A stretch of DNA of 63,836 nt, counting the filler, from Acidimicrobiia bacterium (GTDB taxonomy: Bacteria; Actinomycetota; Acidimicrobiia; Spongiisociales; JAHEDJ01), in the NCBI GenBank assembly GCA_029210695.1. It is 3 parts of 3 records of this genome, joined end to end, with 100 filler letters (N's around TTAATTAATTAA, not from the genome) between each part and the next. Parts side by side here need not be neighbours in the genome. Positions count along the whole stretch, not along the records: positions 1 to 22,723 come from JARGFH010000056.1; 2 more parts are not named here. The stretch is one strand, 5' to 3'. The position numbers are program-made. This document shows, in pieces, positions 3,001-6,000 of this stretch; position 1 is the first letter of the stretch; each line of letters opens with the position of its first letter.

Positions 3001-6000
3001 CCGCCTTCCCAGCCCGGAATACCGAGAGCTCATCCACCCCCTGGAATCTCAGTGACGATCACGCTCCGATTGGCGTCGAGTTCGACCGGATCGACCTTGT
3101 CTTCAGTCAGGAAGATCGAAGCGTTTCCGTGGCAGGCATCGCACGAGGCGTTCTGCGGCGTCGAGCGCTGGATGTTGTGTGGAGTCGCGTACAGCCAGGT
3201 CGGCCGGGCATCGAACTCGGGCAACAGATCATCGCCGTAGTAGGAGAAGCTGTCCTGGTCGACCGGGACATGGCGGACCGTCACCCACGACCATGGGCGG
3301 TCGTCGGTCGGAGTCGGGTTCTTCCCGATGTAGAACAACATCTGCGACTCGTCCGTCTCGAAGTACGGCACGCCTTCCTCGGATTTCTGAACGTGACAGC
3401 TGTAACAGTTCTTGTATGCCACCGAATGGCAGACCTGACAGGAAAGGGCATCCAGATGCCATGCCGTGTGCTGGGCGTTGGCGCCTTCGAGGTCCGGGTG
3501 ACAATCGGTGCAGGCCGGATCTTGCGCTCCGTCGTATCGGAGCTCCTGCTCGGGGCCGACCCCGTGCATGTCATCGCCGGTGTGGCAGGTGAAGCACGCC
3601 ATGCCGCCCGGGTTGTAGTGGACGTCTGCCGGATACATCCCGCCGTCGTCCGTTTCGTTCTTGCCTTTGTACTCGTTCTCGATCCGGCTGCCGTGACAGC
3701 CCGTGCAGGTCAAGTTCATCGGCGGCGTCTCTTTGAACGAGTGACCGGCGAGCAGTCCACCTCCGGCACTGGTCGGCCGGCTCACATGGCATTGCCCGCA
3801 CGAGGCGTGACAGGATGCGCAGTGATTGGTGAAGGCCTCTTCCAGCCCGGGCGAGAGCTCGTCGCCGCCGCTGCGGGCCAGCAGCACGGTGTCGTAGCCG
3901 CCGAGCGTCGCATGCAGGCTGCCGACGTGATCGTCGGTGGTGTCTTCGTGGCAGGTGCCGCAGGTGGTGATCGGGTCGGGATCGACCGTTATTCCGGTGT
4001 GGGCCTCTTCCATGTCGGTTGCGCCCGGCACCCCGCCGTGACAGGTGGTGCACCCGACCTGCCCGTGCGTACTGGCCGGGAATTCCTCATCGCTTACGAA
4101 TACTTGCTCCCATGCCTCCAACTGAGGCACCGAGCCGCCTCAGCCCTCACCCGAGCTGAGCGATTCCGCGTCCACCGGTTCAACGGCGAGCGCCATCAAG
4201 GTTTCCTGGTTGGTGTGGCAATCGAGGCAGGCGGCGTCCGGGTCCATCGCTTCGGTGGTGGTCGGAACGACGGCCTGTGTCGTAGTGGTTGCTACCGAAT
4301 TCGGCGTTGTGTCGAGAGCCGCCACAGTGGTGTCTGGAGCTTCCGCCTCGTCACTGCTGCAACCGGCGAATACTCCTCCGGCCACGATCATCGCCCCGGC
4401 GGCCACCACCAGAGTCCAACGTTTCATATCAACTCCTGGTGGGAGGCGCCGGGATCTCACCGACGCCTCCCGCTGGTCCGGTCTAGGGCAGTTCGTTGAT
4501 CACGGTTTCGGTCGGGTATCCCGGCGCACCCGTGTAGCGGCCGGTGGCGAGGACCGCATCGTCGTCGGTCCAGTCCATCATCCCGAACTTCATGTTGACG
4601 GAGTCGTAGCCGAGCAGCTTGAGGGCGGTTGCCGCCACCTGACCGGTGTGACCGGTGTAGCAGTAGACGATGATCTGCTCATCGGATGGGAGCATGGCCA
4701 GGCTGGCCGGATCGGCGATGGCTTTCCAACCGATGTTGTAGGCACCTTCCACATGACCGAGCGCATAGGCATCCGGCGCCCGGACGCTCAACACGAACGG
4801 ATTGTTCGCATCATCACCGTCTGAGAGGTTCTCAAACAAGGCTTCGGCGGAGGTCGTCGGACCCCAGTCGGCCAGGAAACTCTGGGCCGACGCAATCGCG
4901 ATATCAACCGCGGCCGTCTCGCCGGTGGTCAGCGTCGGCGGTTCATATTCAACCGTCAGTTCGTTGGCTTCAGTCTCGGTCGGGTATCCCGGCGCACCCG
5001 TGTAACGGGCGGTAGCCAGGATCGTGTCGTCATCGGTCCAGCCCATCATCCCGAACTTCAGGTTGGTGGCGTCGTACCCGAAGATCCGCAGCAGGGTCGC
5101 TGCCACCTGGCCGGTATGGCCGGTGTAGCAGTACACGACGATCGGCTGATCGGTCGGCAACTTGGCCAGGTTCGCCGGGTCGGCGATTTCTTTCCAGGGG
5201 ATGTTGTATGCGCCCTCGATGTGACCGAGCGCATAAGCATCCGGCGCCCGGACGCTCAGAATGAACGGGTCGTTCGATTCGTCGCCGTCCGAGAGGTTCT
5301 CGAACAGGGCTTCGGCCGAAATCGTCGGCGACCAGTCGGCAAGTGCGGCGGTGATGTGGGCGGCAAGAACCGCACTCTCATCGATCGCTTCCGTGGTCGT
5401 GGTGGTCGGGGCCACTGTGGTCGTGGTCATCTCGACCATGGTCGTGGCGACCATTGGAATGGTTGTTTCGGCGGCCGCGGCCGCGGTGGTTTCAGTGGTC
5501 TCCGTGGTGTCGTCCGACCCGCAGGCCGAGACAAAGAGACCCATCACGATGAACAAGATCAGCAAGTTCATTCTCTTGCTGGGTGACATGGCACTCCTTT
5601 CAGAGTGATGTCAAGGTTCCTACCCCTTGCTGGCAATGTATCGCGTTCTGTCGCTTCTTGGACACGCCGTTGGCCCCATTCAAAAGTGCCGGCGGACCCG
5701 CCCAAGCGAAGGAAATACGTCGGTATAACACCTGCTTATGTAGGGTTTCTGACCGGTTGGGAAGAGATCGCCGGCCGGAATGGTTGCGCAGAACAGAAAA
5801 TGTGAAGGAGCAGCGATGGATGCACAAAACCTCGGCTTGCTGATCTTGCGGGTGGCCGCCGGCGCGGTGATGATCGCCCACGGCCTCAACCACGGACGCA
5901 AGCTCGACAGCACCGCCGCCTGGTTCGAGTCCATAGGCTTCAGCCGCGCCAGGATGCAGGCGTTCCTCTCGGCGGCCGGCGAACTCGCCATCGGCGCCGG

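Follow-up and report, generated by a model that had tools for sequence, protein, structure and literature searches.

The window, as we call the whole stretch of 63,836 nucleotides (filler included) analyzed from the Acidimicrobiia bacterium assembly GCA_029210695.1, contains on its minus strand a two-gene unit in which a multihaem cytochrome gene is predicted to be co-transcribed downstream of a tandem-rhodanese gene. The rhodanese gene (4483..5589, minus strand) comes first and encodes a putative lipoprotein of 368 aa with two rhodanese domains (PF00581). After a gap of 55 nt it is followed by the complete cytochrome gene (3030..4427, minus strand), which consists of 465 codons and a TGA stop at 3030-3032. 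A Shine-Dalgarno-like AGGAG, read from the sequence, is located at 4433..4437 (minus strand), 5 nt upstream of the ATG at 4427. The gap also contains a G+C-rich hairpin predicted by RNA folding (4441..4471, minus strand). The fold of positions 4420-4495, calculated for the window sequence only, had an energy of -29.3 kcal/mol (z -2.35), which was equalled by 3 of 200 shuffles. About 56 nt past the cytochrome stop, a consensus scan indicated a terminator-like hairpin with a T-rich tail (2960..2974, minus strand). This hairpin lies inside the 3' end of a convergent methyltransferase ORF.

Gene callers divide the cytochrome gene in two, and the genome-wide survey's note had proposed that the two called genes are one gene of 465 aa joined by an in-frame TGA. 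Translation of 3030-4427 with TGA read as U gave 465 residues with a single internal TGA at 4140..4142 (minus strand), corresponding to residue 96 (U96), which lies within GEGUGG. From its CxxCH motifs, the cytochrome is predicted to carry 11 c-type haems; the motifs start at residues 67, 126, 156, 203, 210, 241, 278, 306, 330, 341 and 429, reproducing the number that had been counted previously. Haem motif 1 (C67-H71; 4215..4229, minus strand) is located 5' of the TGA, within the ORF split off by the gene callers, and was invariant in 14 homologues aligned with the window protein at 57-95% identity. The count of 11 CxxCH motifs holds for the window protein, but some Chloroflexota members have 10 CxxCH motifs and one CxxxxCH.

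A putative lipoprotein signal peptide (4359..4427, minus strand) extends to the lipobox residue Cys23 and is followed by a Thr-rich linker to about residue 60. The putative lipoboxes, read by eye, are VFAGC in the cytochrome and FVSAC in the rhodanese, and a lipobox at a similar position was seen in cytochrome homologues with a picked start. Since both proteins carry apparent lipoprotein signals, the outer face of the cell membrane is the expected location of both in this Acidimicrobiia-type actinobacterium. The window cytochrome has 23 cysteines, of which 22 are in CxxCH motifs and one is the lipobox Cys23. With no cysteine outside the haem motifs of the mature protein, selenocysteine (Sec) is therefore its only free chalcogen nucleophile.

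Comparison of related loci showed that the TGA codes for selenocysteine and that the two called genes are one selenoprotein gene. Of 77 related loci, taken from MAGs of Acidimicrobiia and Chloroflexota, 75 have the same in-frame TGA inside GEGUGG, and the remaining two are cut by contig ends. The codon at U96 was thus TGA in 75 of 75 covering loci, in two phyla and down to about 50% identity, and never TAA or TAG. The only sense codon seen at this position was that for Cys, in distant relatives. Cys in a CGG context was found at the Sec position of at least 7 full-length representatives (including P0021, P0023, P0025, P0028, P0031, P0044 and P0057). The terminal stops of 61 complete cytochrome genes were TGA in 15, TAG in 27 and TAA in 19 cases.

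A six-frame search of 201 genomes of the order gave a match in 21. All 20 places spanning residue 96 contained TGA, in agreement with the earlier statement that every match covering the site has TGA. A single TGA was present in 19 of them; the other (G017) had two, since the match extends past the gene's own TGA stop. In the three places without a stop (L034, L035, L040), the match begins 3' of the Sec site. The order loci covering the site were read, and in these the TGA sits within GEGUGG. This motif is invariant, but the seventh residue of the formerly proposed GEGUGGS varies and can be S, A, E, D or T.

Coding conservation was evident on either side of the TGA: haem 1 is conserved before it and the EAW helix after it. 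Of the best 150 representative proteins, about 38-40 begin just after the Sec site, as would be expected of truncated gene calls. As had been noted, the piece encoded 3' of the TGA lacks a signal peptide. Attachment of c-type haem needs export, and the lack of an export signal in this piece therefore supports read-through. The family is widespread, with 178 representative clusters at E <= 1e-30.

A SECIS-like hairpin with a 7-bp stem and a 5-nt loop follows the TGA (4112..4130, minus strand) and is, as judged from sequence, a putative SECIS element. Its sequence, GUGCCUC-AGUUG-GAGGCAU, is as first reported, but it begins 9 nt and not 12 nt after the TGA. Across 76 sequences, 92.7% of the cells were paired, and the 5 inner pairs were kept in 75-76 of the 76. 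Compensatory changes were found at two pairs (G-C to C-G in 14 sequences, U-A to G-C in 1), the covariation score was reached by 0 of 500 shuffles, and synonymous sites were conserved at the hairpin. The genome encodes SelA (433.8 bits), SelB (298.2 bits) and SelD (398.6 bits), all above cut-offs, as well as a tRNA-Sec with anticodon tca; its selD itself has an in-frame TGA and is thus Sec-containing. Taken together, the invariant TGA, the SECIS-like hairpin, the Sec machinery and the Cys homologues bear out the proposal of a single gene. Phyletic coupling between the cytochrome and the Sec machinery was uninformative, with selA in 175 and the cytochrome in 21 of the 201 genomes.

The rhodanese protein matched PF00581 with 100.5 bits in two stretches. 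Its best NCBIfam matches, under cut-offs, were GlpE- and PspE-type thiosulfate sulfurtransferases, and its active-site residues C154 and C310 were invariant in 34 homologues. Among other loci with flank, the gene directly upstream of the cytochrome gene, on its strand, codes for a rhodanese in 13 of 13 from the order and in another 42 of 43 (55/56 altogether), in addition to the window. The pairing, which had been described as invariable, is thus conserved, but with one exception, a single locus (L114) having no rhodanese nearby. The number of domains in the partner rhodanese varies from 2 to 6 across loci. In one representative (P0056), the cytochrome is fused to a double rhodanese, and there is neither Cys nor Sec at the U96 site, indicating that the rhodanese link does not strictly need Sec.

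We also considered DoxX as a conserved membrane partner. This was rejected: apart from the window, the gene adjoins the operon in just two genomes (L041, L042), both of the window's genus, and it is missing from the remaining 10 order loci whose upstream flank is available. Nor does the neighbourhood encode a conserved quinol-oxidising partner. The same genome contains many other multihaem genes.

The cytochrome probably represents a family of its own that is so far uncatalogued. In an NCBIfam scan, the window protein scored 29.9 bits with ExtN, 28.8 bits with ExtO and 26.1 bits with ExtM (cut-offs 200-800), and 20.4 bits with TIGR04315 (cut-off 375), while ExtKL (NF040886) was not matched at E <= 1; the scores in the survey's note were thereby reproduced. 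Relatives of the cytochrome reached 45-51 bits with the ExtN model. A search of the PDB by sequence returned 12 chains at E <= 1, all of them weak and none below E 0.02, confirming that nothing significant is found there, and a Foldseek search of the PDB gave no match at E <= 0.001. The family is absent from the cytochrome entries in the table of a 2026 selenoproteome review (PMC13188914), and no description was found in the literature on Sec multihaem or undecaheme cytochromes, rhodanese, Acidimicrobiia and Anaerolineae. The view that this is a distinct family is upheld by these review entries and by the absence of any NCBIfam or Pfam family model that fits.

Distinctness had also been claimed with respect to TIGR04315 (PF11783), the family of octahaem tetrathionate reductase (OTR). 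This is true for family membership, given the score far below the cut-off, yet the cytochrome is a remote homologue of the same family. Comparison with the OTR family by hhalign gave a probability of 98.4% (E 5.4e-15), or 98.3% (E 2.1e-14) with 62 sequences, over about 205-216 columns. VIA-align to the Shewanella oneidensis enzyme (1sp3_A) gave a Z of 9.5 and an rmsd of 4.2 A over 250 aligned residues, with the next match at Z 4.6. The cytochrome core (residues 147-366; 3330..3989, minus strand), with haems 3-9 equivalent to OTR haems 1-7, shares an ancestor with OTR, and the relatedness is at the superfamily level only. Like OTR, the cytochrome is a multihaem protein that is exported and connected with inorganic sulfur chemistry. 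The two differ in haem number (8 in OTR, 11 in the window cytochrome), and the cytochrome has an extra haem 10 and an added N-terminal module, consisting of two haems and the glycine-rich Sec loop, without a counterpart in OTR. By itself, the N-terminal module gave no match in the OTR profile, with probabilities of 12-20%.

In OTR, the loop that separates haem 1 from haem 2 contains K100 and C108 (numbered as in the family alignment), which were invariant in 30 OTR-family sequences and which we take to be the haem-ligating Lys56 and Cys64 of the Shewanella enzyme. Both are missing at the aligned place in the cytochrome: in the profile alignment, G188 occupies the Lys column, and there is a gap opposite the Cys. 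As the Lys/Cys loop is not kept, the catalytic site may have moved or been lost. The same genome encodes a true OTR-family protein (538.6 bits), and a BLASTP alignment with this protein placed SSGEGUGG on TTGETYGK, so that the Sec loop would correspond to the Lys loop. We rejected this register because the profile alignments put haem 3 of the cytochrome on haem 1 of OTR. Sec forms of the OTR family were not detected among 151 sampled genomes of the phylum, of which 3 gave a match at E <= 1e-60, none with an in-frame TGA. The catalytic haem of OTR is described as five-coordinate and located in its N-terminal module (bioRxiv 10.1101/2022.02.24.481543).

AlphaFold2, which according to the survey's note gives no usable model, produced one with a mean pLDDT of 94.6 and a pTM of 0.90 from an alignment of 135 sequences; the model is without haems. 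In the interior of the model, confidence was lowest in the Sec loop (block pLDDT 83), which fits a mobile loop. In the 135 sequences, nine non-motif histidines were near-universal, H386 was mostly kept, and H202 was restricted to the core clade, giving about ten distal histidines for 11 haems. The core clade itself has 11 invariant non-motif histidines for its 11 haems, so that all of them could be bis-His. From histidine counting and the remote alignment, haem 4 alone seems to lack a conserved distal His. There was no universally conserved Met as a ligand in the alignment, and a conserved Lys as an OTR-like haem ligand was rejected, with K254 and K339 invariant only in the core clade. All 62 Sec forms and all 40 truncated forms have R248, as do 5 of 7 Cys forms, but only 10 of the 26 forms without Cys or Sec.

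We consider it reasonably probable that the cytochrome depends on Sec to reduce sulfane sulfur or S-S compounds outside the cell and that the rhodanese supplies it. The partner gene, the fold family and the analogy to the Geobacter enzyme MccSep suggest a link to sulfur or selenium chemistry. The rhodanese would take up sulfane sulfur, drawn from polysulfide, thiosulfate or something similar, in the form of a cysteine persulfide and offer it to the cytochrome. The selenolate of U96 would then attack the S-S bond to form an Se-S intermediate, which would be reduced by electrons arriving through the mostly bis-His haem chain. This would release sulfide (or thiosulfate, if the substrate were tetrathionate) and restore the selenolate. 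Catalysis probably takes place on the distal side of haem 4, which corresponds to the five-coordinate catalytic haem of OTR and apparently lacks a conserved distal His.

A more elaborate version strikes us as improbable. In this version, U96 would be the distal axial ligand of haem 4, making it a His/Sec-ligated c-type haem, and the persulfide of the rhodanese would hand its sulfane sulfur straight to the selenium. Together, the two proteins would be a terminal sulfur reductase that does without molybdenum and is placed on the surface of single-membrane bacteria, and it would have arisen independently of MccSep by grafting of a Sec loop onto an OTR-type scaffold. The cytochrome has about 4 kDa of peptide per haem, which is in the range assigned to electron carriers and not enzymes (PMC7096707) and counts against an enzyme role.

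The same pair could also run oxidatively, the rhodanese binding thiosulfate or sulfane sulfur, the Sec-haem site oxidising it like the Cys-ligated haem of TsdA or SoxAX, and the 11 haems passing electrons to the respiratory chain; we regard this as unlikely. In the window's genus a DoxX gene adjoins the operon divergently, and DoxD/DoxX relatives take part in thiosulfate:quinone oxidoreduction, the mycobacterial DoxX working with a rhodanese. The relatives belong to the Acidimicrobiia, many of which are aerobes. OTR- and TsdA-type enzymes act on the two-way thiosulfate/tetrathionate couple, and TsdA is described as bifunctional (PMC5146829). DoxX, however, is not conserved beyond the genus. 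The near-universal axial ligands are histidines, with no universal Met as a high-potential ligand, and bis-His haems are usually low-potential, a property suited to passing electrons on to an acceptor. Moreover, the Sec multihaem enzyme characterised so far acts as a reductase (PMC13510729).

Reduction of selenite or tellurite in place of sulfur compounds, be it for respiration or detoxification, is less probable still. It would agree with the best, though weak, NCBIfam matches, ExtN, ExtO and ExtM of a Geobacter reduction cluster (26-30 bits, up to 51 in relatives), but these matches are far under the cut-offs. Selenite is scarce relative to sulfur species in most habitats, and for so widespread a family a common substrate is the likelier one. 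The ext cluster has an effect on the reduction of both selenite and tellurite (PMC5877670), and MccSep also reduces selenite, but it prefers polysulfide (PMC13510729). We give little credence to a mere surface electron wire, leading for example to metal oxides or other cells, with a non-catalytic Sec. The electron-carrier-like ratio of peptide to haem (PMC7096707) would fit this function, as would a putative lipoprotein of a single-membrane cell, the many other multihaem genes and the occurrence of the surface cytochromes OcwA and OmhA among the weak structural matches (Z 4.2-4.4). An invariant Sec that costs a whole insertion machinery and a SECIS argues instead for chemistry at this site, the near-obligatory rhodanese partner and the fusions would be left unexplained, and the best structural and profile match is an enzyme, OTR. 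It is hardly credible that the TGA is a true stop or disabling mutation that leaves a monohaem lipoprotein of 95 aa plus a decahaem ORF that is either dead or started separately. Gene callers do split the gene in this way and many public proteins start just after the site, but the TGA is kept in every covering locus across two phyla amid strong protein conservation on both sides, the ORF after the TGA is without a signal peptide, and both a conserved hairpin and a complete Sec machinery are present.

MccSep, published in 2026, is the only characterised selenium-dependent multihaem enzyme and was presented as the missing sulfur reductase of Desulfobacterota. As a Sec-dependent sulfur reductase, the family described here would be a second, independently built solution, with an OTR-like fold, another Sec position and no Cys partner. 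Its hosts, Acidimicrobiia and Chloroflexota, are abundant in sediments, groundwater and reactors, and their sulfur respiration is poorly understood. Every Sec-type member is cut in two by gene callers, so that metabolic reconstructions miss the gene and selenoproteome catalogues are without it. The family also provides the long-puzzling OTR superfamily with a testable partner, the rhodanese, and a testable substrate class.

Periplasmic sulfur carriers of the rhodanese type that feed sulfur reductases are known, namely Sud of Wolinella succinogenes, which acts with polysulfide reductase, and SbdP of Aquifex aeolicus. Like these, the partner protein is apparently exported and of the rhodanese type, with a catalytic Cys, and such proteins are thought to pass sulfane sulfur to a respiratory reductase. 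The reductases served by Sud and SbdP are molybdoenzymes, whereas the partner here is a haem-selenium protein, and the rhodanese is a putative lipoprotein with 2-6 tandem domains. The weak match to ExtN (GSU2934; NF040967) extends over the greater part of the decahaem body, with residues 105-447 aligned to positions 20-353 of a profile of 415. ExtN is a decahaem protein of 47.3 kDa from the extHIJKLMNOPQS cluster, which also encodes a rhodanese and a Sec cytochrome (PMC5877670). The window protein remains far under the ExtN cut-off of 200 bits, and no Sec is reported for ExtN.

The closest parallel is MccSep (ExtKL, GSU2937-2936) of Geobacter, a Sec multihaem polysulfide reductase that is clustered with the rhodanese ExtH (PMC13510729; PMC5877670). 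The cytochrome is not MccSep: no sequence relation was detected, and no chain named MccSep was among the 12 weak PDB matches. MccSep is described as having 5 haems, of which the catalytic one has His/Cys ligation, and a Sec that lies close to the C-terminus within an Ig-like domain (motif DGUP) (PMC13510729), whereas the cytochrome has 11 haems, its Sec near the N-terminus (GEGUGG, residue 96 of 465) and no free Cys. MccSep is also a soluble periplasmic tetramer of Desulfobacterota and Nitrospirota, in contrast to the putative lipoprotein of Acidimicrobiia and Chloroflexota. Nevertheless, the gene of the Geobacter sulfurreducens enzyme likewise has an in-frame UGA with a SECIS-like hairpin nearby, was annotated as two genes, and is accompanied by that of a rhodanese-like lipoprotein (ExtH). 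MccSep acts on S-S bonds and is the best model for how the cytochrome may work.

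On the minus strand of the window, the reading frame of the cytochrome opens with an ATG at 4427, preceded by AGGAG, and ends at a TGA at 3030-3032. Its sole internal stop is a TGA at 4140-4142, and translation through this codon yields a 465-residue product with 11 CxxCH motifs. The haem motifs account for 22 of the 23 cysteines, and the remaining one is the lipobox Cys23. A Thr-rich linker lies between the predicted lipid anchor and haem 1, and the segment 3' of the TGA lacks a separate export signal.

The rhodanese gene (5589 to 4483, minus strand) encodes a predicted 368-residue lipoprotein with two rhodanese domains and lies 55 nt upstream of the cytochrome gene. 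The gap between them holds a G+C-rich hairpin (4441-4471, minus strand; -29.3 kcal/mol, z -2.35), and a terminator-like hairpin (2960-2974) follows the cytochrome gene. The pair is flanked on one side by a convergent methyltransferase gene and an ABC-2 transporter, and on the other by divergent genes for DoxX, FTR1 and a sigma/anti-sigma pair, with no evident tie to the pair. The DoxX-family membrane protein gene (5780-6322, plus strand), divergent from the rhodanese operon, was also found beside the pair in two genomes of the same genus (L041, L042) and was missing from the remaining 10 order loci for which upstream flank is available. Around the pair, no other conserved gene was found, and DoxX stands beside it in this genus only. 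The contig that holds the finding covers window positions 1-22723 only; runs of N split the window at 22724-22823, 33984-34080 and 44978-45077.

The internal TGA could be a true stop codon or a codon for selenocysteine (Sec). A repeat of the six-frame search found the gene in 21 of 201 genomes of the order, with a TGA within each of the 20 places spanning residue 96; three places without the TGA start downstream of this residue. Three unpublished genomes (G004, G016, G195) were counted only in the six-frame tallies. A scan of species-representative genomes gave 77 loci with 49-94% identity, their records titled as Acidimicrobiia, Actinomycetota, Chloroflexota, Anaerolineae, Caldilineaceae and Thermoflexales MAGs. 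The TGA lies inside GEGUGG in 75 of the 77, and the remaining two (L090, L094) end at contig edges before the Sec site. As their own stop codons, 61 complete genes use TGA 15 times, TAG 27 times and TAA 19 times. The genome-wide survey's note had described an invariant GEGUGGS; this motif is one residue too long, because GEGUGG is followed by any of S, A, E, D or T.

A profile search of 1.84 billion representative proteins returned 964 proteins at E <= 0.001, 178 of them at E <= 1e-30. Among the best 150, about 38-40 start just past the Sec site, as expected of truncated calls. Cys followed by GG occupies this site in at least 7 full-length proteins, and about 26 proteins have another loop, which lacks Cys. 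In some Anaerolineae members (L081:596-2758, L083:6034-8238, L089:478-2058) the Sec cytochrome is lengthened to 12-18 CxxCH motifs.

A hairpin (7-bp stem, 5-nt loop) begins 9 nt 3' of the TGA. Across 76 sequences, 92.7% of the hairpin cells are paired, and the five inner pairs are kept in 75-76 of them. Compensatory changes occurred at two pairs. At the first, 14 sequences from a single clade have C-G in place of G-C, through a synonymous Val change paired with an Ala-to-Gly replacement; at the second, one sequence has G-C in place of U-A. None of 500 shuffles reached the covariation score. Third-codon positions within the stem are nearly frozen, and the Gly and Glu codons 5' of it vary freely.

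The genome also encodes the machinery for Sec insertion. The selA gene (433.8 bits) adjoins selB (298.2 bits), a tRNA-Sec gene with anticodon tca is present (C66:20103-20193), and selD (C94:13659-14588, 398.6 bits) contains one in-frame TGA, so that SelD is probably a selenoprotein itself. Taken together, the TGA within GEGUGG, the conserved hairpin and this machinery bear out the reading of the TGA as a Sec codon against that of a true stop. Short of mass spectrometry, we consider the selenoprotein status of the cytochrome settled. About 1.2 kb from the tRNA-Sec gene lies a gene of the octahaem tetrathionate reductase (OTR) family (C66:17257-18942; L134:1255-2940, minus strand). Elsewhere in the genome, C170:81000-96500 and C94:44000-61000 hold groups of open frames, each with 6-11 CxxCH motifs; on C170, several of them overlap in different frames and may reflect assembly frameshifts.

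In each of the 13 order loci with flank that were examined with Pfam, the same-strand gene immediately 5' of the cytochrome encodes a rhodanese; this set leaves aside L050, which has no flank, and L052 and L056, in which the cytochrome ORF is cut. A further set comprised 43 loci, each with no less than 1.1 kb of flank; of 42 upstream ORFs examined there, 41 are rhodaneses, and at L111 the upstream tandem rhodanese is present, split over two overlapping frames (L111:4525-5651) through a frameshift or an error in the assembly. The partner is thus present in 55 of 56 related loci and in the window itself. The claim that it is always adjacent holds for these loci but fails at L114 (JBMOMT010000014.1, 7434-10938), which has no rhodanese neighbour and has hypA and hypF, for hydrogenase maturation, just downstream of the cytochrome. 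The partner's rhodanese domains number 2 to 6 across loci, and both catalytic cysteines are invariant in 34 two-domain homologues. In one representative (P0056) the cytochrome is fused with a double rhodanese. An upstream open frame at L093:2960-5914 links multihaem domains to four rhodanese domains. At L054 (G058:C38), part of a molybdopterin-oxidoreductase gene, truncated where the contig ends (59-301, minus strand), lies directly downstream of the Sec cytochrome, and a second multihaem gene of the MtrC/MtrF type (7904-9022, minus strand) lies 6 kb off.

The cytochrome reached no curated NCBIfam cut-off. The best scores were 29.9 bits for ExtN, 28.8 for ExtO, 26.1 for ExtM (cut-offs 200-800 bits) and 20.4 for TIGR04315 (cut-off 375 bits), and the ExtKL model gave no match. 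The genome's true OTR-family gene scores 538.6 bits with TIGR04315 and has no in-frame stop. Pfam identified only generic multihaem domains in the cytochrome. AlphaFold2 with a 135-sequence alignment produced a model, without haems, of mean pLDDT 94.6 and pTM 0.90; the earlier statement that no usable model could be obtained is explained by a shallow alignment. Foldseek returned nothing significant for this model. An exhaustive VIA-align search gave as top match 1sp3, the Shewanella OTR (Z 9.5, rmsd 4.2 A, 250 residues; model 61-408 against chain residues 1-434), followed by hydroxylamine oxidoreductase (Z 4.6).

Profile comparison with 30 OTR-family sequences placed cytochrome residues 147-366 on OTR 67-340 (probability 98.4%, E 5.4e-15), and with 62 cytochrome sequences it gave a probability of 98.3% and E 2.1e-14. 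In this register, cytochrome haems 3-9 correspond to OTR haems 1-7, and haem 4 (C203-H207) to OTR haem 2, which is ligated by Lys56. OTR haem 2 is described as the five-coordinate catalytic haem of the N-terminal module (bioRxiv 10.1101/2022.02.24.481543). In 30 members, the OTR loop before this haem has an invariant Lys and, eight residues on, an invariant Cys (K100, C108); in the cytochrome, G188 aligns with the Lys and no residue aligns with the Cys. The N-terminal 90 residues of the mature cytochrome (haem 1, Sec loop and haem 2) had no OTR counterpart in the profile comparison. A BLASTP register equating GEGUGG with the OTR Lys loop was rejected, because the profile register differs and this N-terminal part is unmatched in OTR.

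Nine non-motif histidines (121, 143, 172, 229, 270, 288, 320, 324, 417) are near-universal in 135 superfamily sequences, in which H386 is mostly kept and H202 is kept in the core clade only. Seven of these histidines map onto OTR distal ligands, and H121, H229 and H386 would serve the three extra haems. Counted in this way on a remote alignment, haem 4 would have no conserved distal His, like its OTR counterpart; the core clade, however, has 11 invariant non-motif His. R248 lies in an invariant stretch after haem 6, and the aligned part of OTR is the invariant stretch that follows OTR haem 4. It is kept in Sec-type sequences (62/62 and 40/40) and in 5 of 7 Cys-type sequences, and in just 10 of 26 forms without Cys or Sec. 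As the sequences are related and not independent, this association with Sec is no more than a lead. Within the model interior, confidence is lowest at the glycine-rich Sec loop (block pLDDT 83), consistent with a mobile arm such as the DGUP loop of MccSep (PMC13510729).

The cytochrome contains Sec, and its gene stands with that of the other predicted lipoprotein, the rhodanese; the cytochrome's function and the role of the Sec we infer as follows. The rhodanese would carry sulfane sulfur as a persulfide, U96 would attack the S-S bond, and the Se-S adduct would be reduced by the haem chain at or near haem 4. Apart from Sec, the mature cytochrome has no free chalcogen nucleophile, and a MccSep-like Se-S-S(Cys) intermediate would therefore need a rhodanese Cys or none. 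Rival readings make the cytochrome a plain electron wire or assign the pair to selenite reduction. His ligation usually gives haems low potentials, and the near-universal histidines thus suggest a reductive role; a further rival is an oxidative, TsdA-like role of the pair.

The survey's finding is real and its interpretation is supported, with Sec read-through of one gene, a rhodanese partner and no curated family matched. Our literature searches turned up no description of this Sec eleven-haem cytochrome family. The available part of the 2026 review of prokaryotic selenoproteins (PMC13188914) has three cytochrome-type families, ExtKL, GSU2204 and TIGR04315, and this family is not among the cytochrome-type entries of its table. 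As a relative of the decahaem body in Geobacter, ExtN is a weak candidate. OTR is the nearest relative by descent, but the cytochrome lacks its defining Lys/Cys loop and falls short of its family score. As a working model, MccSep/ExtKL paired with ExtH comes nearest (PMC13510729; PMC5877670), but it shows no kinship to the Sec cytochrome in sequence or architecture. The Sec eleven-haem cytochrome is an uncatalogued selenoprotein family, which belongs to the OTR superfamily by descent and resembles MccSep by design.
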